A stretch of 61,536 nt of DNA from Oscillospiraceae bacterium (GTDB lineage: Bacteria > Bacillota > Clostridia > Oscillospirales > JAAYXM01): assembly GCA_017559985.1 (NCBI GenBank), contig JAFYPW010000017.1, positions 1 through 61,536 on the forward strand, read 5' to 3'. Both the position numbers and the translations under genes were made by a program. Position 1 is the first letter of the stretch. The number at the start of each line of letters is the position of its first letter. Below the pieces are notes generated by a model. It had not been told where the DNA came from. It made no database searches and saw only the letters and a program-made list of their open reading frames with translations. Below, piece by piece: positions 48,796 through 60,348 of this stretch.

Positions 48796-49494
48796 TTACT
48801 TTACCTCGCGGATAATTCCCATTGGTGTCTGCTGTGCGCTCTGACCGAGCGGATTGTCACGAAGAATTTCGGGGAGAAGCTCGCGGTCAAGCGTTTCGTC
48901 GGATGCGCCGAGAATCTTTCCGGTTAAGTCGTTAACATCGACAATAACTGTCTTAAAGCCTATTCTCTCCGCAATTTCTGCTGCTGTCTTGTCAGGATTC
49001 TCCGGGCCGAGAACAACGCACTTGTTATAAGGCGGAAGTGTATACGGTGTGGGGCCGTCGATTGATTCGGCGCGATAACCCGCAACCTTATAAAACCATC
49101 CGCGGCGACCTAAAAGCTTGCCTATTGCGCTGATGAATGCAGCAAAAAGCATACGCGGCGTTCCGCATTCGCGGAGTGCCATCTCCATCGTCTCGGGAAT
49201 TCCGAGGCCTATGCCGTAGGGCGATTTGTAAACAAACTTGCAAAGAAGCTTTGCAAGCGGGCGGGGATGAATCTCCGTAAGCGGTACTGCGCGCTTCTGC
49301 GAGCAGGCAACACACTTCTCGGATATGAAGAGGATATCCCCCTCCTGCATATGCTCCATCGCATATTTTTCTGCAACGTCTGCTATTTTATCGTTTTCGG
49401 TAACAACGTGTGTCTTTATCGGGAGACGCATATAGTCGCGCCCGCGCACAGTGATAACCGCATTTTTCCCTTCGTTTGCCAAAAGTTCTGCCAT
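48796..49494 (-). CDS. CofE-like (F420-0:gamma-glutamyl ligase family) protein
   Basis: PIKTH, DILFISEK...SQ, IDG, VIVDVND, DNPLGQ..QQTPMGIIR. Confidence 0.7.
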   Translation of the reverse strand: MAELLANEGKNAVITVRGRDYMRLPIKTHVVTENDKIADVAEKYAMEHMQEGDILFISEKCVACSQKRAVPLTEIHPRPLAKLLCKFVYKSPYGIGLGIPETMEMALRECGTPRMLFAAFISAIGKLLGRRGWFYKVAGYRAESIDGPTPYTLPPYNKCVVLGPENPDKTAAEIAERIGFKTVIVDVNDLTGKILGASDETLDRELLPEILRDNPLGQSAQQTPMGIIREVK

Positions 49495-49580
49495 CTTTCA
49501 AAACCCCTTTTGTTTAGCTTTTCCTTTATTATACATCAAAGAAGAAAAGATTTAAACCCTTTTTTTGCTTTTTTACAAAC

Positions 49581-49610
49581 AAAAGAGATGTGAATTTTCA
49601 CACCTCTTTT
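49581..49610. terminator. Terminator ending the Rnf-like operon
   Basis: AAAAGAG(A)TGTGAA-tt-TTCACA(C)CTCTTTT, 4 bp after the stop of 49615-50640. Confidence 0.65.
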
Positions 49611-49614
49611 CGTG

Positions 49615-50640
49615 TTATTTTACCATAAATTGCTCACCGTCGGCACGGGCTTTAATCATAACCGCACCAGATATTCCGGAAAGCGCGCCTTCAAGAGTCC
49701 ATCTGCCCGACGCTTCGTTTACATAAACTTCGTCGAAGTTTTTCTCAAAGACTGCGGCATCCTGCCCGCTCTCACCGAGAAGCCGGTCAGCATAGTTTTC
49801 ATAAACCGCGGAAAGCTTTATCTTTCCTGCCGCCTGCCTTGCCTCTTTCATAAAGCTTTCAAGCGCATCGCCTTTTTTTCCGAGCTCTTTTTCATAGAAG
49901 AGAAGCTCGGTTTTCCCCACCGCAGGAAACGAGATGTTTGAAACAATAATCTCATCGGGAGAGAATTCGGAAAGCTCTCCTATAATATCTGTGAGATATC
50001 CCCTTGCCTCTTCTGAGTATGCCGAGAGCCAACGGACATTTGTTCCGTCAATCCAGATTATTTTATTCTCCGTTCTTGCGGAAAAGCTCTGGTTTTTGCG
50101 TGCGGCCTCGTTGTCCTTGAAAGCGGACATATAAAGCGCAACACGGTATCCGCACTCGCGTGCCTTTGTAATTGCCGATGTGAGAGCTTCACTTTCACCG
50201 CTTACCTCAGCGGCCTTTCCGAGTGCAGATTCCGTTGCAAACGCGAGCATTCCGTCCTCTGCCTTTACTTCAAGAACTAGCGTGTTTATATTCTGCGGCA
50301 CGGACGCAAGGGCCCCGGAAAACAGCTCGGCATTTTTCACCGTGCCTATCGGAACAAAATATGCGCGGACATCGCCCGTCTTTACGGGCTCAGGCTCAGG
50401 CTCGGCTACGGGTTCCGGCTCTTCGATTATGAGGTTTGCCTCAACCTTTTCGCTTTCCGCATCTTCCTTCTTTTCAAGAAACGAAAAGAACGAGCCTTCC
50501 CGCGTGAATGTCATATTCTCGTTTACGAACCAGAGCGTTCCGGCGGCTATGGCACACAGTATAACGAGCGTCGGAATAAGCACACCCACTCCCCGGCGCG
50601 AGCCTCTGTATCTTCCGTATGATTTGCGTGACCTTCTCAC
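49615..50640 (-). CDS. Membrane-anchored putative glycoside hydrolase (DUF4015-like) with degenerate catalytic motif; probable GTG start
   Basis: Arg-rich N-terminus, TM helix, Pro/Glu linker; NTLVLEVKAEDG, SAFKD, WLSAYS, DEIIVSNISFP resemble family motifs NAVVIDVK, VFKD, WxNPY, DEIQFDYxRFP; AGGAGG 7 nt before GTG. Confidence 0.7.
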   Translation of the reverse strand: MRRSRKSYGRYRGSRRGVGVLIPTLVILCAIAAGTLWFVNENMTFTREGSFFSFLEKKEDAESEKVEANLIIEEPEPVAEPEPEPVKTGDVRAYFVPIGTVKNAELFSGALASVPQNINTLVLEVKAEDGMLAFATESALGKAAEVSGESEALTSAITKARECGYRVALYMSAFKDNEAARKNQSFSARTENKIIWIDGTNVRWLSAYSEEARGYLTDIIGELSEFSPDEIIVSNISFPAVGKTELLFYEKELGKKGDALESFMKEARQAAGKIKLSAVYENYADRLLGESGQDAAVFEKNFDEVYVNEASGRWTLEGALSGISGAVMIKARADGEQFMVK

Positions 50641-50653
50641 AGGCAAACCTCCT

Positions 50654-50827
50654 TTATTCCTCGCCTGCCGTGACGGCGCAAGGCTTCTCTTCCTTTTCTT
50701 TTTTTACTGCTTTCTTTTTTCCGGTCTGCCGTGTTGGGGCATCCAGCAGCACAAGAGCCGCGGCACAAAGCACGCCGAGCACCGTAAGCGTTATAAACGG
50801 CGTGAGAATATCAAAAAATATCTTCAT
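50654..50827 (-). CDS. 57-aa membrane peptide in the rnfB position (not in the ORF track)
   Basis: MKIFFDILTPFITLTVLGVLCAAALVLLDAPTRQTGKKKAVKKEKEEKPCAVTAGEE*; GAGGT RBS; fills the gap between rnfA and the GH-like gene. Confidence 0.75.
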   Translation of the reverse strand: MKIFFDILTPFITLTVLGVLCAAALVLLDAPTRQTGKKKAVKKEKEEKPCAVTAGEE

Positions 50828-50836
50828 ATGTCAACC

Positions 50837-51421
50837 TCAGATGAATTTCATTCCGTCAAAACCCATAAAAGCGAGAGAAATGAGCCCTGCCGTTATGAGT
50901 ATTATCGGTATTCCCTCAAAAAATTTCGGAACTTTTGAATATTTAAGTCTTTCGCGCACCGCGGCAAACAGCATTGCAGAGAGTGTAAAACCCACTCCTG
51001 CGAAAATCCCGTAAAACACCGCTTCAAGAAGATTGTATCCGCTCTTTGCCGCAAATAAACATACTCCGAGCACTGCACTGTTTGAAAAAACAAGCGGAAG
51101 TGAAAGCGGTATATCCTTCAATCTCTTTGCGTACTTCTTAAAAGCCGCAGAAAGTACGGTCACTGACATCGCGACAACGACCACATATGCAACACTTCTG
51201 AGGTATATAATGTCAAACGGCACAAGCACAAGGTTTTCCAGAATGCTCGTTGCAATCGTGCAGATGCCTGTCATAAGTGTAATCGATATTCCCGTAACAA
51301 GTGCGCTTTTTAAACTTTCTGTCTTTGAGACAAACGGCGCAATTCCGAGGTAGTGTGCAAAAACGATATTATCCGAAAGAAGCGCGCCGAGCGCGACAGA
51401 AATTATTCCGAGTATGCTCAT
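50837..51421 (-). CDS. rnfA: RnfA-like membrane subunit lacking both conserved Cys
   Basis: YLGIAPF, LPLVFSNSAVLG, RERL...VPKFFEGIPIILITAGLISLAFMGF. Confidence 0.85.
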   Translation of the reverse strand: MSILGIISVALGALLSDNIVFAHYLGIAPFVSKTESLKSALVTGISITLMTGICTIATSILENLVLVPFDIIYLRSVAYVVVVAMSVTVLSAAFKKYAKRLKDIPLSLPLVFSNSAVLGVCLFAAKSGYNLLEAVFYGIFAGVGFTLSAMLFAAVRERLKYSKVPKFFEGIPIILITAGLISLAFMGFDGMKFI

Positions 51422-52029
51422 TTCGCACCCTCCTTTTTATCCGGATTTCCGAAAAAGTGGCGGAATACCGCTATTACAACACCAAGAAGTATGAGTCCTC
51501 CCGACGGATGGGTAAGCACGAGCATACCGTATTCCTCCGGGAATATGCGAAGCCCGAAAAACGTGCCGTTTCCGATGACCTCACGGACAAGCGCCATAAA
51601 AAATATCACGGCAAAGAAGCCCACGCCGCACGCAAGTGCGGAAATCAGCGCATCGGATGTCTTCTTGACTCTCTCAAACCTTATGGACTTTGCAAAGATT
51701 ATTCCGGTTACGGAAAGAAGCGGGAGATACATCCCTATCCTCTCCGATACGGGAAGAAGGAAAGCGCGTAAAAGCAACTCGAATATTGAAATAATGAATA
51801 CCGCAAAAAGAATGCATACGAGAAGCTTTATCTTTTCCGGCAGCTTCTTTTTAACAAATCTTATAACAAGCGCCGAAAAAAGTGTTGTCACTATGGCACA
51901 CATACCCATTACAACCGCATCGGAAAGCCTTGTTGAAGCCGCAAGAAGCGGACATATGCCGAGAAGAAGAGCAAGAACGGGGTTTTCAGAGATTATTCCT
52001 TCACGCATTTTATTTATGAAGCTTTTCAT
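51418..52029 (-). CDS. rnfE: RnfE-like membrane subunit lacking the second conserved Cys
   Basis: ENPVLALLLGICPLLA, YLPLLSVTGII, VREVIGNGT, PSGGLILLG. Confidence 0.85.
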   Translation of the reverse strand: MKSFINKMREGIISENPVLALLLGICPLLAASTRLSDAVVMGMCAIVTTLFSALVIRFVKKKLPEKIKLLVCILFAVFIISIFELLLRAFLLPVSERIGMYLPLLSVTGIIFAKSIRFERVKKTSDALISALACGVGFFAVIFFMALVREVIGNGTFFGLRIFPEEYGMLVLTHPSGGLILLGVVIAVFRHFFGNPDKKEGAK

Positions 52030-52643
52030 TCTTCTGCCGCCTCCTTTTCTTCTTTTTCACGAAGGTTTCCGACAGCAAGACTTGCCCGGTTCACTGCGTC
52101 CACAACAGCAGGTGAGGATATATCCGACCCCACAACATCGTAAATCTCGCTTTCGCGGCTTGCTTTACCGTTCACGAACGTGACCTCGCCGCTTTTGCCC
52201 TCGAACTGAGAGAGGAATTCTTCATCGGTGGTTTTAGTTCCCGCACTCTGTCTTTCTCTCTCCGAGATGATTTCTGTTTTGAGAATTTTTCCGTCTTTGT
52301 CAATTCCGACGGCTACGCGCAAATCACGGTTTATTCCGTTTGCGCGGGTTTCAACACAATAGCCTGCAAGCTCCGTGCCGTTATATGCCTTATAGAGCGC
52401 ATACACTCCGCCGGCGTCCGAGTGTTCATAGTCTGTCTCCTCATAGCTCTCAGCAGGGCAAATGCGCGACATCGCAGAAACAAACGGCTTCATCTCCGCT
52501 TTGTCTATACTTTGGCGAAGCAGCATATTAAGCCCGGAAAGTGCAAGAGAAACAACAGCAAGTATGCCCGCAAGAATGAGCGTTGTATGAAGGAGCTCCT
52601 TCTTCTTTTCGGGAGAAAGGAAAACTTTTTTCTTATCCGTCAT
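52026..52643 (-). CDS. rnfG: RnfG-like FMN-binding-domain protein lacking the flavinylation motif; start at MTDKK
   Basis: N-terminal TM, VAVGIDKDGKI, FLSQFEGK, DVVGSDISSPAVVDAV in place of D.ISGATISS.AV; ATGA overlap with rnfD. Confidence 0.8.
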   Translation of the reverse strand: MTDKKKVFLSPEKKKELLHTTLILAGILAVVSLALSGLNMLLRQSIDKAEMKPFVSAMSRICPAESYEETDYEHSDAGGVYALYKAYNGTELAGYCVETRANGINRDLRVAVGIDKDGKILKTEIISERERQSAGTKTTDEEFLSQFEGKSGEVTFVNGKASRESEIYDVVGSDISSPAVVDAVNRASLAVGNLREKEEKEAAEE

Positions 52644-53686
52644 TTCCGGGCACCTCCTTTTTTTGATGCCCCGAAACGGACAGGGCGGCAAAGCTTATCC
52701 ATAAAGCACGCGACGCAGTTCATAATGAGAATTGCAAAGGTAACGCCGTCCTCATATACACCGAAATATCTTATAAGGAATGTGAGAATTCCGCATCCTA
52801 TACCGTAGTAAATTCTCCCTCGCGGTGTCACGGGGCTTGTTGCATAGTCCGTCGCGAGGAATACCGCACCGAAAAGAAGCCCGCCCGAGCATACACTGTA
52901 TATCGCCCAGAGATAACCCGGATTTCCGCCAAGCGGAAAAAGAAGCGAAAGTATTGCAACCGTTCCTACATATGCCGCGGGAATGTGTATTGTTATAACG
53001 CGACGCACAAGCAGATATATCGCCGCCGCAACGATAACGATTGCCGAAACCTCGCCCATCGCGCCGGCAACATTTCCGACCGCGACATCGCGAAGGCTTG
53101 ATATAACACCGGTGTTTCCGCCTGCAAAGCTCGGCAGATACCCGAGCTTCATCTTTCCGAGCGGTGTGAGAGATGCAATTATCTCAGGGTCAAGGGCTGC
53201 GCGGGAGACTCTTCCGAAAACAGATATCGCCCGCTCGCCAAGATTGGGCTTTATCCACACGGAAACAAGAGCCGGCCACGAATACATAAACGCGCGCGCC
53301 GTGAGTGCAGGGTTTAAGAAGTTCTTGCCGAGTCCGCCATAGAGCTTTTTAACAACAACAATTGCAAAAAACGCACCGAAAACCGGTATCCATACAGGAA
53401 CAGAGACTGGCAGACACAACGCAATAAGAAGGCCCGTAACGGTGCTTGTAAGGTCACGCACCGTGGTCTTCTGCTTTGTTACACGGTCATATCCCCACTC
53501 AAAAAACATACACGAAAAAACCGAAACAAGCGCTATAAGAAGCGTCCGCCAGCCAAAAAAGTAAACTGACATTATAAGCGGGAAAAGAAGCGCAACCAGA
53601 ACATCCGTCATTATATTGCGCGTGCTCTCCTCCGCCCTTATATGGGGAGAGGGTGATGTGAAAAATCTGTTACTTTCTATCTTCAT
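52640..53686 (-). CDS. rnfD: RnfD-like membrane subunit
   Basis: SPHIR, YGGLGKNFLNPAL, TPL, GAMGEVS, ATDYATSP, FAILIMN. Confidence 0.92.
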   Translation of the reverse strand: MKIESNRFFTSPSPHIRAEESTRNIMTDVLVALLFPLIMSVYFFGWRTLLIALVSVFSCMFFEWGYDRVTKQKTTVRDLTSTVTGLLIALCLPVSVPVWIPVFGAFFAIVVVKKLYGGLGKNFLNPALTARAFMYSWPALVSVWIKPNLGERAISVFGRVSRAALDPEIIASLTPLGKMKLGYLPSFAGGNTGVISSLRDVAVGNVAGAMGEVSAIVIVAAAIYLLVRRVITIHIPAAYVGTVAILSLLFPLGGNPGYLWAIYSVCSGGLLFGAVFLATDYATSPVTPRGRIYYGIGCGILTFLIRYFGVYEDGVTFAILIMNCVACFMDKLCRPVRFGASKKGGARK

Positions 53687-55010
53687 CTGTCTTCTCCTCC
53701 CGGTCTGTTTTTTCGGAAAGCTTCTCCTTTACGGTGCGGAAAGCCGACACAAGCGAAAGTCGCGCCGGGCAAACGTATGCACACGCTCCGCATTCCGTGC
53801 AGTCAGAAACACAAAGCTCTTCGCATTCGGAAAGCTCATCTGCCATAAAGCTTCTGTAAATATAAACCGGCAAAAGGTTCATGGGACAGACCTGCACACA
53901 TTTTCCGCAGTGGATGCAGGTTGTTTCGCACGGGAGCTCCCCCTCACCGCCGCAAAAGGCTATAAGCACATTTGTTCCCTTTATCACGGGAACGTCGAGT
54001 GAAGAAACGGATGTTCCCATCATCGGTCCGCCAATGATGATTTTATCCGGATGTTCCAGAAAACCGCCACAGGCTTCAAAAATCTCACCAATGGGTGTTC
54101 CGATCTTCACGATAAGGTTTTTCGGGTTTGCAACGGCAGAGCCGGTTACCGTAACCACACGCTCGGTGAGCGGAGTTCCGCTGCGAACCGCGCGCGAAAG
54201 CGCAACGGCGGTGGAAACGTTCATCGTCATAACAGCGACGTCAGACGCATCTCTTCCCGCGGGAAGCTCCCTTCCCGTGACCGAGCGGATTATCTGACGC
54301 TCCGCACCCTGCGGATATTTGCTGTGCACAATCGTCATCTTTATACCGGGCTTTTTTGCAAGTGTTCTTCGAAGCTCGGCTATTGCATGGGGCTTGTCCG
54401 ATGCAACGGCAATATACACATTCTTCACGCCGAGTGCCTGTGCCGTTATGAGCGCACCGTCGTAAAGAGTTTCCGTTTCTTCAATCATAATGCGATTGTC
54501 AGCCGTGGCATACGGCTCACACTCCGCACCGTTTATTATAAGCGTATCAACAATATCTTTCGACGCACGAAGCTTTTCAGAAAGCGGGGCTGCGCTTCCG
54601 CCAAGGCCCACGATTCCCGCATCCCTTGCAATCTCTGCAAGCTCGTCCGCTCCGAGTGCAACAAACCGTTCAAGCGGAGGGAAAATCTCCTCGCGCTCAT
54701 CTGCAAAATCATTTTCTATAACAACCGACAAAACCTCATCACCGTTCGGGTGCAGACGCGGCTCAATCGCAGTCACTCTTCCCGAAACGGAGGCGTGGCA
54801 CGGGGCAGAGTTTGGGTTTGTGCTCTCGCCTATCTTCTGCCCGAGTTTCACATAGTCGCCAATCTCAACTATGGGACTGCACATAGCACCCTTGTGCATA
54901 AGCAAAGGGATGACCACCTCACGCGGAGGCTTCATCTCATCTATCGGTTTTCTTTCGGTACGGCTCTTTTTGCTATCAAGATGTATTCCGCCTTTGAAAA
55001 TAAAGGACAT
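53670..55010 (-). CDS. rnfC: RnfC-like NADH/FMN/2x[4Fe-4S] subunit
   Basis: FKGGIH, HASVSG, GIVGLGG, NGAECEPY, YPQGAE, GGPMMG, CIHCGKCVQVCP, CTECGACAYVCP. Confidence 0.93.
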   Translation of the reverse strand: MSFIFKGGIHLDSKKSRTERKPIDEMKPPREVVIPLLMHKGAMCSPIVEIGDYVKLGQKIGESTNPNSAPCHASVSGRVTAIEPRLHPNGDEVLSVVIENDFADEREEIFPPLERFVALGADELAEIARDAGIVGLGGSAAPLSEKLRASKDIVDTLIINGAECEPYATADNRIMIEETETLYDGALITAQALGVKNVYIAVASDKPHAIAELRRTLAKKPGIKMTIVHSKYPQGAERQIIRSVTGRELPAGRDASDVAVMTMNVSTAVALSRAVRSGTPLTERVVTVTGSAVANPKNLIVKIGTPIGEIFEACGGFLEHPDKIIIGGPMMGTSVSSLDVPVIKGTNVLIAFCGGEGELPCETTCIHCGKCVQVCPMNLLPVYIYRSFMADELSECEELCVSDCTECGACAYVCPARLSLVSAFRTVKEKLSEKTDREEKTDEDRK

Positions 55011-55044
55011 AGTTTCACCTCGTCAAAAAAGTATATACATATTT

Positions 55045-55073
55045 ATTTTACAACAATTATGCCATTCTTGCAA
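55045..55073 (-). promoter_or_regulatory. Sigma-A promoter for the Rnf-like operon
   Basis: TTGCAA-17 nt-TAAAAT; GAGGTG RBS before rnfC. Confidence 0.6.
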
Positions 55074-55100
55074 GCTTTGTTAATATTTTGCGTTTTTGTG

Positions 55101-57206: not shown

Positions 57207-58376
57207 CTATAGCTTCTTAATTAAATTAAACAGTCCTAATGGCATATGCAATTTCATATTGCTTCTTAATCTGCCTTTGAGGTTGTTTTTCCTGTATTGT
57301 TTCGCAATATCGGAAATTCTTCCGTTTTTGCAGGCATCCATATATTTATCCCATTTTGTTCCCTTAACTGTGGGGTGGCGCAAACAAGTATTGCCGTTTA
57401 CAACCGCATTATAGTCGACTTCTTCCGTTGTCATTTTCGAGCTCAAAACACTTAACAGGCTCATTGCCTTTTCATTATTGAACATACAAACAGAAATTCC
57501 GTTAATTCTATCACAGGAGAGTTTAACTCTATTGTGTCCCCAAAAATCACCAAGGGTAATATCCCCTATTCGGTTTTCCGTTGCATATCTGCACTCAAAA
57601 CAACTTGGCCGCATAAGATTTCCCACAGAAAAACCATACATATAAAACTCGTCATTTTTACCGATGTTTTTAGTCTTTCCTTTAAAATCGGTAAATTCCG
57701 CGGTGATTCTCTGCCATGTATATTTTTTACTTCTGAAATTAAAGTCGGTTATCTTTGTTTTGTGCTTGTTCTCAAGGTATTTAACAAATTCTCTGAACAT
57801 TGCATACGAGGGAACACCGTGGCAAATTAAATCAACCGTGATTAAATTTTCATAACCCTTGCCAAGATATCCCTTGAGCGCTCCCACCTGGCACGGCGTA
57901 CCCGTAAACAGAACCGTTTTCCCTGCCTCAAGCCTTTCTTTTGCGTCACGATATACAAGCCCCGTATCGCTCTGAACATACTTGGACTTACGCATCAAAA
58001 GATAATCATCCTTCTTTTCAGAGCAGATATGTATGGGTTTCAACTCATCGTCATATACACACCCACAGACTGCGCCGCCGTTTTCAAGAATGTGTTCTGC
58101 CAATACTGAAAAAGCACCGCCGGAGCTGCTTTTCATAAGGATGTCTTTATCTTTTATTGTGCATGCATACGCTTTTAACGGATAAATCAGCTCCATATCA
58201 AAAACTTTTTTGCAGGTCTTTGAACACAAATTGCACTCAATGCACTTTTTTTCATCAATTACCGGATGTAAAAAACCATAGTTGTTTTCCTGTAATTTTA
58301 CGGCATCTTTTGGACAAACATTTGCACACGCCCCACAACCTGTGCACTTGTCAGGAGTTTCGCAAATCTGAATCAT
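57207..58376 (-). CDS. FrhB/F420H2-dehydrogenase-subunit-like Fe-S protein (polysaccharide-locus type)
   Basis: CTGCGACANVCP, CIECNLCSKTC, SSSGG, SKYVQS, GTPCQ, DLICHGVPS, RPSCFEC, DITLGDFWG; AT-rich. Confidence 0.9.
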   Translation of the reverse strand: MIQICETPDKCTGCGACANVCPKDAVKLQENNYGFLHPVIDEKKCIECNLCSKTCKKVFDMELIYPLKAYACTIKDKDILMKSSSGGAFSVLAEHILENGGAVCGCVYDDELKPIHICSEKKDDYLLMRKSKYVQSDTGLVYRDAKERLEAGKTVLFTGTPCQVGALKGYLGKGYENLITVDLICHGVPSYAMFREFVKYLENKHKTKITDFNFRSKKYTWQRITAEFTDFKGKTKNIGKNDEFYMYGFSVGNLMRPSCFECRYATENRIGDITLGDFWGHNRVKLSCDRINGISVCMFNNEKAMSLLSVLSSKMTTEEVDYNAVVNGNTCLRHPTVKGTKWDKYMDACKNGRISDIAKQYRKNNLKGRLRSNMKLHMPLGLFNLIKKL

Positions 58377-58377
58377 T

Positions 58378-59502
58378 TTAGTTCACACTCCGCTCGATTG
58401 CGTTATAGAGATACTCGATAGACTGCCTTTTTCTTGTTTCTTTGTTCTCATTTATACGGACATAGTCAAGCGGTGTGATTTTAGAAAAGTCATAAATTTC
58501 GTCTATGTATCTGCCTTCTATTTCAAACAACTTTAAAACTTCGGAAATCCTTGGATTTGTCACAACGCTCACTTTTTTTAACAATCCTACGAAAAACTCT
58601 TTTTCAAATATAATCGAAAAACATATTCCGTGAAAGCTGTTGGTTACAATGTATGAGGCATTATCCATATACCCCAGCCACTTTTCCGGCCCTACGGCAT
58701 ATATAGGTCTGTCGTTTTTTCCATACATCCAATGCTTGACAACCTTAACCACTTCTAAATTATGGAATTCAGCAAGCTTTTTTGCGTATTCTGTGATTTC
58801 TTTTGAATCTTCACGCAAATACACAAATACGTATTTCTTTCTTGCAGGAGCTTTTTCAAGTTTGCGATATTCTTCCTTATCCGTCAACAACGACGGGTCT
58901 AAAACCCATTCTGCCTTTTTCCCTGAAAGTTCGGAAACTATTTCAACACCGTACCTTTCTCTTACAGAAACAGCTGCAAAATCGGATATAAGTTTTTTTG
59001 CCTCATCAATTTTATTTTCAGGCACTCTGCTTTGTCCAAAACTTGCTGCATATGAAATCTTTTTCTTGTTGTCATTTACAAAATCCAGGAAGTAGGTTTC
59101 ATCTACATTGCAACTGCCGTAATTCCATACCTGGTCGCTTCCGACAACAAAACAATCATACCTTTTTTCTATCTGATTCAAATCATCTCTTGTAACAGGT
59201 TTACGGGAAAATCCGCAATAGTGTCTATTGAAAAACTTTTCATACCTGTGCATTCTCACAGGGTGTGCTATGATTCTTGCTATCCATTCGATTATCAGGC
59301 GTGGTGTCCACTTTTTCAAAGGGCCAAAAAATACAGTCTTACCTATTACAGGCTTTCCCGCACTTGTCTTTTGGTAATTGATTATATGCGCTTTTAAGCC
59401 TTCTTTTTTTGAAATATTTTGTTGGAGGGAATATGCTTGCAATACCGAGCCCGGATTACTTGAATAAGAAAATGTCAAAATCCCTATTTTCTTTTCTCTC
59501 AT
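58378..59502 (-). CDS. Polysaccharide pyruvyl transferase family protein; start at MREKK
   Basis: NPGSVLQAYSL, VGSDQVWN, SYAASFG, SVRE, LDP, TNSFHG. Confidence 0.9.
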   Translation of the reverse strand: MREKKIGILTFSYSSNPGSVLQAYSLQQNISKKEGLKAHIINYQKTSAGKPVIGKTVFFGPLKKWTPRLIIEWIARIIAHPVRMHRYEKFFNRHYCGFSRKPVTRDDLNQIEKRYDCFVVGSDQVWNYGSCNVDETYFLDFVNDNKKKISYAASFGQSRVPENKIDEAKKLISDFAAVSVRERYGVEIVSELSGKKAEWVLDPSLLTDKEEYRKLEKAPARKKYVFVYLREDSKEITEYAKKLAEFHNLEVVKVVKHWMYGKNDRPIYAVGPEKWLGYMDNASYIVTNSFHGICFSIIFEKEFFVGLLKKVSVVTNPRISEVLKLFEIEGRYIDEIYDFSKITPLDYVRINENKETRKRQSIEYLYNAIERSVN

Positions 59503-59537
59503 TCCTCTCACCTCTTGTGTTAATTATATCAAGTTGT
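59500..59537. repeat. Imperfect direct repeat, copy 2 (upstream of the pyruvyl transferase)
   Basis: CAT-t-CCTCTCACCTC-ttgtgtta-ATTATATCAAGTTGT. Confidence 0.8.
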
Positions 59538-59593
59538 ATGACATTTTTCAAGGAAAAGAAAAAAGGAAAAGCCGGGCGAAAAATCGTCCGGTT

Positions 59594-59797
59594 TTAATCT
59601 TTGGGGATAAACTCCGCAATATCCTCTAATCTGCATTCAAGTACTTTACACAACTTTGACAATGTTTTTGTCTCTATGTTTTCATTTGCCCTAAGGCAGC
59701 AAATTGTCTTGCTGTCTATTCCGCATTTTTCTCTCAACATATATGTTGAGACACCTTTTTCTTTCATTGTACTCCAAAGCCTGTCAAATACTATCAT
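59594..59797 (-). CDS. Small Cro/C1-type (XRE) HTH protein
   Basis: MIVFDRLW..MKEKGVS.Y.L...TLSKLCKVLECRLEDIAEF, a typical ~67-aa clostridial XRE. Confidence 0.8.
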   Translation of the reverse strand: MIVFDRLWSTMKEKGVSTYMLREKCGIDSKTICCLRANENIETKTLSKLCKVLECRLEDIAEFIPKD

Positions 59798-59883
59798 ATA
59801 ACCCACCCCTTGACATTTATTATGGGGGTTATAATCTAAAATATTAAGGGGATATATTCCCCATATAAAGAGGTTGTATTATT

Positions 59884-60348
59884 TTGAAAAACAAAACTTG
59901 TTGTTTTACAGGATACCGTGAGCTTTCTTTTTGGGATAGTCTTATACTCAGTTGCAAACTCAAAAAAGAGATTAAAAAGCTTGTAGGTCTTGGTGTTATT
60001 TATTTTGGTAATGGCGGTGCAAGAGACTTTGACACAATTGCTGCAAAAGCGGTTCTGAAAATGAAAAAACATTACCCTGATATACACTTAATACTCGTGT
60101 TGCCTTGCGCTGAACACACTTCAAATTGGAATTCTTACGACAAAGAAGAGTTTGAATATGTAAAACTGCACGCAGATAAAGTAAAAGTTCTATCAAACCA
60201 TTATTACAGCGGGTGTATGCATACTAGAAACCGTCATTTGGTTGATAATTCTTCTTATTGTATTTGCTACAAACGAAAAGATTTTGGCGACACTGCATAT
60301 ACTGTCAATTATGCAATAAAAAGAATCCTTAGAATAATAGAGCTTTGA
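59884..60348 (+). CDS. SLOG/DUF1273 (YspA-like) protein, possibly decaying
   Basis: TCCFTGYR, GGARDFD, LVLPC, GCMHTRNRHLVDNS, DTAYTV; GAGG RBS with TTG start. Confidence 0.75.
   Translation: MKNKTCCFTGYRELSFWDSLILSCKLKKEIKKLVGLGVIYFGNGGARDFDTIAAKAVLKMKKHYPDIHLILVLPCAEHTSNWNSYDKEEFEYVKLHADKVKVLSNHYYSGCMHTRNRHLVDNSSYCICYKRKDFGDTAYTVNYAIKRILRIIEL

Follow-up and report, generated by a model that had tools for sequence, protein, structure and literature searches.

The Rnf complex is a Na+/H+-translocating ferredoxin:NAD+ oxidoreductase that in its canonical form has six subunits. RnfB joins a membrane helix to two Fe-S domains, a small [4Fe-4S] one (PF04060) and a polyferredoxin. Two cysteines of RnfA and two of RnfE hold an intramembrane [2Fe-2S] cluster, RnfD carries flavin mononucleotide (FMN) covalently on a Thr, where it is installed by ApbE, and RnfC has two [4Fe-4S] clusters and a site for FMN and NADH. 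Described here is an rnf-derived operon on the reverse strand of contig JAFYPW010000017.1 of the Oscillospiraceae bacterium assembly GCA_017559985.1; the whole 61,536 nt stretch that was analysed is called the window. The comparisons presented below establish, at the level of sequence, that the half of the electron path that leads from ferredoxin to RnfG is missing, and that this state is old, clade-wide, selected and reached stepwise.

In Acetobacterium woodii, neither autotrophic growth nor ferredoxin-dependent NAD+ reduction is reported to survive mutation of the AE1 [2Fe-2S] cysteines (Kumar et al. 2025, PMC11889175). The same double loss is reported there for mutants in the B8 cluster cysteines of RnfB, and for mutants in RnfG T185/Y113 or RnfD N123/D249. 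The clusters of RnfB and RnfC are described in the same source as more than 30 Å apart, with no shortcut between them.

Two groups of relatives of Rnf with altered cofactor sets have been described. According to a 2025 review, RNF and NQR have "strictly conserved" cofactors in their membrane subunits (PMC12174285). In Na+-NQR, NqrA, the homologue of RnfC, is reported to have lost all redox cofactors and to have been kept as structure (PMC11889175, PMC12174285), and in this respect it resembles the window subunits. The loss in NQR is however on the RnfC side, and NqrF has replaced RnfB, whereas the loss in the window is on the side of RnfB, RnfA/RnfE and RnfG and is without replacement. The window proteins score far below the cut-offs of the Nqr family models; NqrF itself was not searched for. 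In the two-subunit "NQR/RNF-like" systems (Meheust et al. 2021, PMC8238504; follow-up paper of 2024, PMC11334425), NAD(P)H is the proposed source of electrons that flow in one direction and end at an extracytosolic flavin. Like the complex proposed here, they would use half of a U-shaped path, with one-way flow of electrons from the cytosol through an RnfD-type subunit, and their RnfD-like subunit is also described as having no flavinylation site. They differ in having a fusion of RnfD with an NqrF-type NAD-binding domain (PF00175) and a flavinylated RnfG/NqrC-like subunit that depends on ApbE. The window RnfD matches PF03116 alone and has no PF00175 domain; in addition the cytosolic module is RnfC, RnfG cannot be flavinylated, and RnfA and RnfE are retained. 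Literature searches found no published account of an RnfA or RnfE without cysteines or of a degenerate Rnf, although supplementary tables, for example the gene-cluster table of PMC8238504, may list such clusters.

With Rnf itself the window operon shares the gene order rnfCDGEA(B), homology of all subunits, the Fe-S motifs of RnfC, and the riboflavin ligands and Thr of RnfD. Four defining features of Rnf are missing from it: the Fe-S domains of RnfB, the full set of [2Fe-2S] cysteines (three of four are gone), the FMN site of RnfG with its Thr and Tyr, and scores above the family cut-offs in all subunits, which RnfG, RnfE and RnfA do not reach. It further differs in the Na+-site residues of RnfE and in the GGAxFP loop of RnfC, and no ApbE was found.

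Cofactor sites in the window operon

Pfam and NCBIfam identify all five Rnf subunits, with curated cut-offs passed by RnfC and RnfD only. Each subunit was aligned to the chains of the solved Rnf complexes from A. woodii (9eri), C. tetanomorphum (7zc6) and A. vinelandii (8ahx), with E values from 8e-111 for RnfC down to 1.5e-15 for RnfG.

RnfC (53670..55010, 446 aa; TIGR01945 481 bits, cut-off 246) has both CxxCxxCxxxCP motifs for 4Fe-4S clusters, and the alignment bears out the initial annotation, made from the DNA of the window alone, on this point. Its flavin/nucleotide loop is changed from GGAxFP to GGSAAP, and N205 is replaced by Asp. By analogy with complex I, the Phe of this loop would have a role in nucleotide binding.

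RnfD (52640..53686, 348 aa; TIGR01946 290 bits, cut-off 207) has the riboflavin ligands N125 and D280, which correspond to N123 and D249 of A. woodii and are invariant in the genus. Thr174 is also retained. The residues that precede it have diverged: the segment reads "EIIASLT", so that A-S-L-T stands in place of D-x-x-[S/T]-G-A-T. The flavinylation motif is given as D-x-x-[S/T]-G-A-[S/T], with the last Thr or Ser carrying the covalent FMN (PMC12052999). Thus the earlier statement that RnfD keeps its core motifs is correct for the riboflavin ligands and the Thr, but not for the flavinylation context. An insertion of about 35 residues (about residues 146-194) lies ahead of the FMN Thr when compared with solved RnfD chains, and is present in the window and in the whole family.

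The membrane subunits on the ferredoxin side show a different picture. RnfG (52026..52691) has an open reading frame (ORF) of 221 aa, of which probably 205 aa are translated from an ATG at 52643 (TIGR01947 54 bits, cut-off 102). The FMN_bind fold is retained, but the "GATITS" of the solved chains is "GSDISS", which replaces the FMN Thr by Asp (D190) and leaves V-G-S-D at the site. The Tyr that pairs with the FMN Thr (Y113 of A. woodii) is Ile. In RnfE (51418..52029, 203 aa; 108 bits in NCBIfam, cut-off 213) the first cluster Cys, C26, is retained ("LGICPL") and the second is Gly (G109). The A. woodii Na+-site residues R67, E115 and N107 are K68, I116 and T108 here. In RnfA (50837..51421, 194 aa; 148 bits in NCBIfam, cut-off 229) both cluster cysteines are replaced, by Ala in "LGICPF" (A28) and by Ser in "TTNCAVLG" (S115), so that RnfE C26 is the only one of the four intramembrane [2Fe-2S] cysteines left. 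The cofactor losses first proposed for RnfG, RnfE and RnfA were therefore correctly read: both cysteines in RnfA, one of two in RnfE, and Thr and Tyr in RnfG.

The ORF of 57 aa that follows rnfA (50654..50827) is not a new subunit. It has no family match in Pfam or NCBIfam, and consists of an N-terminal membrane helix and a tail rich in Lys and Glu. Its helix can be aligned with the one at the N-terminus of RnfB in relatives, by which the ORF is a remnant of the RnfB membrane helix with all Fe-S domains gone. Its counterparts in genomes G005 and G012 have no cysteine. On these two grounds a reading of the ORF as a Cys-tailed protein akin to NqrM was rejected.

Missing functions were also looked for elsewhere in the genome, a metagenome-assembled genome (MAG) of 1.41 Mb in 82 contigs that is 85.9% complete. 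Within it no RnfB over the cut-off was found (best TIGR01944 match 33 bits, cut-off 68.7), and there were no matches to the PF04060 Fe-S domain or to the flavin transferase ApbE, which agrees with the initial annotation that no Fe-S RnfB is present. ApbE and PF04060 were likewise not found in a sister genome that is 99% complete. There is a single RnfA/RnfE pair in the genome and no second pair was detected. The search for a second, canonical rnf operon, which had been suggested, was negative in this genome, and in eight genomes of the genus it gave nothing over the cut-off. PFOR and ATP synthase are present; FeFe hydrogenase and UbiA were not found. FeFe hydrogenase (PF02906) was not found in 8 of 41 genomes (G000, G004, G005, G006, G009, G012, G014 and G016), among them every one of the six genomes in one subclade of the genus.

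Since the equivalent mutations are reported to abolish activity in A. woodii (PMC11889175), the window complex as sequenced would be unable to run the canonical ferredoxin:NAD+ reaction. Very probably, then, it is no longer a ferredoxin:NAD+ oxidoreductase or a redox-driven Na+ pump.

Distribution and history of the reduced state

To place the operon among its relatives, 40 rnf loci were annotated from the 39 genomes with a match among 40 searched. The relatives come from gut samples. All of these sequences are from MAGs, and absence calls depend on completeness, which is 64-99% in the genus. The canonical set for comparison is 19 loci from six other genera of the family and from other families of the order; the group definitions partly follow the feature counted, and loci L068-L070 were set aside as degenerate before the canonical count.

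RnfA is without both cysteines in 19 of 19 genomes of the genus (the window and 18 others of genus g1), with Ala, Ser, Thr, Glu, Lys or Pro at the first site and Ser or Thr at the second. RnfE has Gly at the second Cys site in all 19, and the first Cys survives in six. All four cysteines are present in 19 of 19 canonical loci. Close relatives with intact motifs, which would have indicated simple decay in the window, were thus sought and none was found in the genus. The PF04060 domain was found in none of the 19 genomes of the genus and in six of six other genera of the family.

The gene that follows rnfA varies within the genus. At 13 loci it encodes a protein of 230-255 aa with the helix and the polyferredoxin domain but without the small Fe-S domain. 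In G014 it is a 168 aa form with one Fe-S motif, and in the window, G005 and G012 it is a stub of 48-57 aa; at two loci (L050 and L053) an RnfB-like ORF was not resolved by the script. In the tree of RnfC and RnfD the genus forms one clade (support 100) that lies within the canonical operons of its family. Thus the change in the RnfA and RnfE cysteines, in the small Fe-S domain of RnfB and in the loop of RnfC took place once, at the base of the genus. Later steps differ between sublineages. RnfB is truncated in the window while its sister, G017, retains 237 aa, and it is truncated separately in G005 and G012, for which the sister G014 is an intermediate. The RnfG Thr is lost in the window; in G017 the site reads "IGMT", with the Thr kept and the motif degenerate. 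In a subclade of six genomes all that is left of RnfG is the helix, in a stub of about 83 aa. By these comparisons RnfB and RnfG have each been truncated or inactivated on two independent occasions, and the membrane helix was retained. ApbE tracks RnfG: it is found in 10 of 11 genomes of the genus with SGAT in RnfG, and in none of the eight in which RnfG is disabled or truncated.

Reduced operons are also found outside the genus. Among 301 genomes of the order, 264 have an RnfA match, which is over the cut-off in 236 and below it only in 28. Ten of the sub-cut-off genomes outside the genus were inspected, and six are degenerate. Three others, in G140, G095 and G268, are canonical genes cut short by the end of a contig, and in G074 all four cysteines are present as in canonical loci. 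Added to L068-L070, the six bring the degenerate loci outside the genus to nine, spread over four further families (f5, f7, f10 and f11). These are more extreme than the genus: RnfB is gone in eight of nine, the RnfD Thr is lost and the RnfC flavin loop is unrecognisable. RnfG is absent from these older degenerate operons, and RnfE has instead a long, disordered and charged N-terminal extension. The extension is 40-300 aa in length, of low complexity, rich in Lys, Arg, Glu, Pro and Ala, and has no family match; genes with it are at L068 4984-6501, L094 4981-6492, L099 4948-6492, L069 7079-8197 and L093 4006-5007. Both Fe-S motifs of RnfC and the riboflavin ligands of RnfD are present in every degenerate locus in which the gene is present. 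A single exception to the general pattern is L096 (G139, f5), in which the RnfA and RnfE cysteines, the RnfG motif and the RnfD Thr are lost, but a 290 aa RnfB-like gene with the small Fe-S motif is present and no DUF4015 gene is nearby.

On the RnfD tree the hypothesis that all degenerate forms make up one clade is rejected (approximately unbiased test, p-AU 0.0004); the clade tested was named after the RnfC and RnfD tree had been seen, and long branches are involved. On this phylogenetic evidence, Rnf reduction arose independently in other families of the same order. The RnfA profile of the genus was further used to scan 1.84 billion cluster representatives and gave 5827 matches. In the best 150 of these, 69 have both cysteines, and the second is missing in 39 (in 35 of which the first is missing as well); in the remaining 42 the second Cys is present and the first position is a gap or a different residue, some of these sequences being fragments or misaligned at the N-terminus.

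The rates at which the subunits change separate them into two groups. No stop or frameshift is found in the 19 loci of the genus or in the nine other degenerate loci. In six close pairs within the genus the ratio of nonsynonymous to synonymous rates (dN/dS) is 0.10-0.22 for RnfA and RnfE and 0.06-0.12 for RnfC and RnfD, with dS of 0.2-1.7 that is in some cases near saturation. Thus the ratio is not near 1 in RnfA and RnfE, a value that had been named as the mark of simple decay. Median identity of RnfC is 64% in the genus and 65.5% in the canonical genera of the family, and for RnfD the values are 66% and 70%. At this equal divergence of RnfC and RnfD, RnfA has a median identity of 41% in the genus against 78.5% in the canonical genera, and RnfE 42% against 68%. 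Conservation of 90% or more in canonical loci defines a set of columns of which the genus retains 69 of 79 in RnfC and 60 of 66 in RnfD, but 8 of 14 in RnfG, 17 of 53 in RnfE and 16 of 53 in RnfA. The first reading that structural residues are conserved was overstated for the latter two. Thus RnfC and RnfD evolve as they do in working complexes, while RnfA and RnfE are relaxed but retained. RnfA, RnfE, RnfG and the RnfB stub persist as a membrane shell that evolves faster but is still selected.

Between the window and G017 the dN is from 0.22 (RnfC) to 0.53 (RnfG), with dS of 1.6-2.4, which is saturated. Identity between the two is 41-72% in the operon (72% for RnfC) and 88-95% in two flanking genes. 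By this measure the constraint on the operon is weaker than that on its neighbours, yet far from neutral. In one very close pair, L050 and L058, the dS of rnfE (0.54) and rnfA (0.71) is higher by a factor of about three than the dS of rnfC, rnfD and the DUF4015 gene (0.20-0.24), which hints at recombination within the operon.

Possible roles of the complex

With somewhat more confidence than doubt, the operon is read here as coding for a selected, non-canonical complex derived from Rnf whose active part, taken loosely, would be RnfC and RnfD. That the complex is maintained by selection for some function is quite probable. The segment from the RnfC Fe-S clusters to the RnfD riboflavin would be the part still in use, because its cofactor sites are the only ones conserved through every independent reduction. 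In the mechanism that is proposed, the live core would be a short electron wire from the RnfC clusters to a flavin bound by RnfD. The wire would be fed from the cytoplasm by NAD(P)H or another donor and would deliver electrons to an acceptor in the membrane or at its outer face; the remaining subunits would serve as a scaffold, possibly tied to the DUF4015 protein encoded at the end of the operon. This wire mechanism specifically is put forward tentatively, with more doubt than confidence. The initial annotation had already favoured repurposing over decay, with a loss confined to the leg formed by RnfB, RnfA/RnfE and RnfG. Both parts of that view are supported, with the maintained state seen in 19 of 19 genomes of the genus and in the low dN/dS. 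RnfC is nevertheless not untouched, since its flavin/nucleotide loop changed at the same node.

Several observations weigh against this reading of the complex. The genome is a MAG that is 86% complete, and the absence of RnfB and ApbE from it is therefore unproven. If ApbE is indeed missing, RnfD would have no covalent FMN, and there would be no obvious route for electrons across the membrane. UbiA was not found, and thus there would be no self-made quinone to accept them; a quinone acceptor was considered and set aside on this ground. NADH input is doubtful because the RnfC GGAxFP loop is altered in the genus and unrecognisable in the older lineages. About 70% of the positions conserved in canonical RnfA and RnfE are lost, and the operon evolves faster than its neighbours, as it would also in a slow erosion. 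Finally, the DUF4015 gene also follows canonical operons, as described below, so that its link with Rnf may be one of mere operon neighbourhood.

The DUF4015 gene (49615..50646, 343 aa) matches PF13200 with an E value of 1.5e-18 and 67.4 bits (cut-off 27), over profile positions 4-185 of 313 only. The protein has an Arg-rich N-terminus, one membrane helix (residues 20-44), a disordered linker and an extracytoplasmic domain that resembles a glycoside hydrolase with a TIM-barrel-like fold (model pLDDT 83). Among solved structures, those closest in fold are Cthe_0052 (4s1a), Cwp19 of C. difficile (5oq2), the C-terminal domain of PgaB (4f9j) and GH20 enzymes, with Foldseek E values for the TIM-barrel-like ectodomain from 3.6e-14 to 5e-9. 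Members of the family are often fused to polysaccharide deacetylase or LysM domains. The modelled fold and these fusions thus point to work on wall or surface glycans. The proteins of the genus are without a C-terminal stretch that is found in more distant relatives. The passages of PMC12700454 that deal with DUF4015 describe fusions with YkyA domains, unrelated to Rnf, and no published link between Rnf and DUF4015 was found in literature searches.

This gene is central to a non-redox explanation, in which the Rnf membrane shell (RnfD, RnfE, RnfA and the single-helix remnants) was repurposed as a scaffold, anchor, transporter or channel for an envelope function with DUF4015, and the RnfC clusters would be at most a sensor of redox state or oxygen. 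This is the main rival of the redox reading; we consider it fairly unlikely, with a number of findings in its favour. The DUF4015 gene is downstream of rnfA on the same strand in 17 of 18 relatives in the genus (the contig of the exception ends 782 bp past rnfA), and lies directly after rnfA, at 23-133 nt, in eight of the nine independently degenerate loci. Its protein is better conserved in the degenerate genus (median identity 49%) than among the canonical genera of the family (32%), and the membrane helix and juxtamembrane stretch are highly conserved, with invariant columns from Y13 to G51. The membrane helices of RnfB and RnfG survive where the redox domains have been shed; the older degenerate lineages are also without the RnfD FMN Thr, RnfG and the RnfC flavin loop; and the likeness of the fold to Cwp19, PgaB and GH20 enzymes, with the deacetylase and LysM fusions, is in keeping with an envelope function. 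However the RnfC 4Fe-4S motifs and the RnfD riboflavin ligands persist in every lineage, and a pure scaffold would need neither.

The association with DUF4015 is moreover not specific to the degenerate form. The gene follows rnfB in 8 of 20 canonical loci (L036, L042, L048, L049, L054, L060, L061 and L097), or in 8 of the 17 with enough sequence, since 3 of the 12 negatives are cut by a contig end. Counted by lineage, it is downstream in 4 of 5 degenerate and 4 of 13 canonical families, a skew toward degenerate lineages that is suggestive only, as relatives are not independent and the hidden Markov model used was built from the same homologues. A membrane-anchored DUF4015 protein is thus also a recurrent seventh gene after rnfB in canonical operons with all cysteines, in at least four families of the order.

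A bolder proposal joins the redox core with the envelope. It holds that there is a recurrent, hitherto undescribed Rnf-derived class in gut Oscillospiraceae-type bacteria that has shed its ferredoxin and Na+ half, with a core of RnfC Fe-S clusters and RnfD riboflavin and a shell of RnfA and RnfE free of cofactors, which would work with the membrane-anchored DUF4015 glycosidase and couple the cytoplasmic redox state, or a one-way flow of electrons, to the remodelling of cell-wall or surface glycans. The window would then be a transitional stage. This proposal is considered improbable as a whole.

Slow decay, by which Rnf became dispensable in a small-genome gut lineage and the operon is an eroding relic without a function of its own, is rated slightly lower still. 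The progressive losses that differ between sublineages, the relaxed constraint on RnfA and RnfE at equal divergence of RnfC and RnfD, the rapid evolution of the operon relative to its neighbours and the small genomes (1.1-3.2 Mb) would all be expected of a relic, but not the intact reading frames of all 28 loci, the dN/dS of 0.10-0.22, or RnfC and RnfD that are as conserved as in working complexes. The truncations of RnfB and of RnfG (two of each) also end exactly past the membrane helix, and in the older lineages the reduced operon has been retained across several genera and families.

The least probable explanation by far is a still-working ferredoxin:NAD+ Rnf, with other cluster ligands and an RnfB or flavin transferase that lies at another locus or is missing from the assembly only: reduced ferredoxin does need an outlet, as PFOR is present and no FeFe hydrogenase was found, but the replacements at the cluster sites vary within the genus and form no conserved ligand set, the equivalent mutations are reported to kill activity in A. 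woodii (PMC11889175), PF04060 was found in none of the 19 genomes of the genus, of which several are 95-99% complete, ApbE was not found in the 99% complete sister, and the Na+-site residues of RnfE are lost.

The reduced operons bear on how genomes are read. When the metabolism of gut and rumen anaerobes is reconstructed from genomes, the presence of Rnf is treated as diagnostic of energy conservation that depends on ferredoxin. Operons of the type described would score as "Rnf present" and yet, by the published mutagenesis, could not oxidise ferredoxin or pump Na+. With nothing but sub-cut-off RnfA in 28 of 301 genomes, and RnfA without the second Cys in 39 of the best 150 representatives, such mis-annotation of Rnf is probably common. 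The repeated stepwise loss of one half of a U-shaped path, while the other half stays under normal constraint, amounts to a natural dissection of Rnf. It singles out the parts that have value on their own, namely the RnfC Fe-S clusters, the RnfD riboflavin pocket and single membrane helices. It is also a second evolutionary route, besides NQR, by which Rnf has been rebuilt, and points to a further acceptor or partner.

Operon layout and surroundings

The seven ORFs (rnfC, rnfD, rnfG, rnfE, rnfA, the 57 aa ORF and the DUF4015 gene) are all on the reverse strand, have no internal stops and are translationally coupled. There are overlaps of 17 nt between rnfC and rnfD and of 4 nt each between rnfG and rnfE and between rnfE and rnfA. 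The likely rnfG start at 52643 overlaps the rnfD stop codon as ATGA. Gaps of 9 nt and 7 nt separate the 57 aa ORF from rnfA and from the DUF4015 gene, respectively. A promoter-like site, TTAACA-16-(TG)CATAAT, is found on the same strand upstream of rnfC (55056..55083), by a consensus match alone (10 of 12 positions). Just 3′ of the DUF4015 stop codon is a terminator-like hairpin (49576..49610, reverse strand) with a stem of 13 bp, a 4 nt loop and a U-rich tail. Its folding energy is -16.6 kcal/mol (z -5.8), and none of 200 shuffled sequences was as stable. Thus the ORF coordinates, the promoter-like site and the hairpin agree with the tightly coupled operon, from promoter to terminator and without stops or frameshifts, that was first described.

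Upstream of the operon are upp, folA and thyA; downstream are an F420-ligase-like gene, a gene of the YnbB-type gamma-lyase family and thiI. The F420-ligase-like gene, at 48796-49494, is of the F420-0:gamma-glutamyl ligase type (PF01996) and stands here in a Clostridia-type genome; the operon region is also flanked, at 57207-58376, by an FrhB/FdhB-like gene with a 2x[4Fe-4S] N-terminus. The GC content of positions 58001-60000 is 0.37, compared with 0.44-0.52 in the rest of the window, and this stretch may be foreign or surface-polysaccharide DNA.

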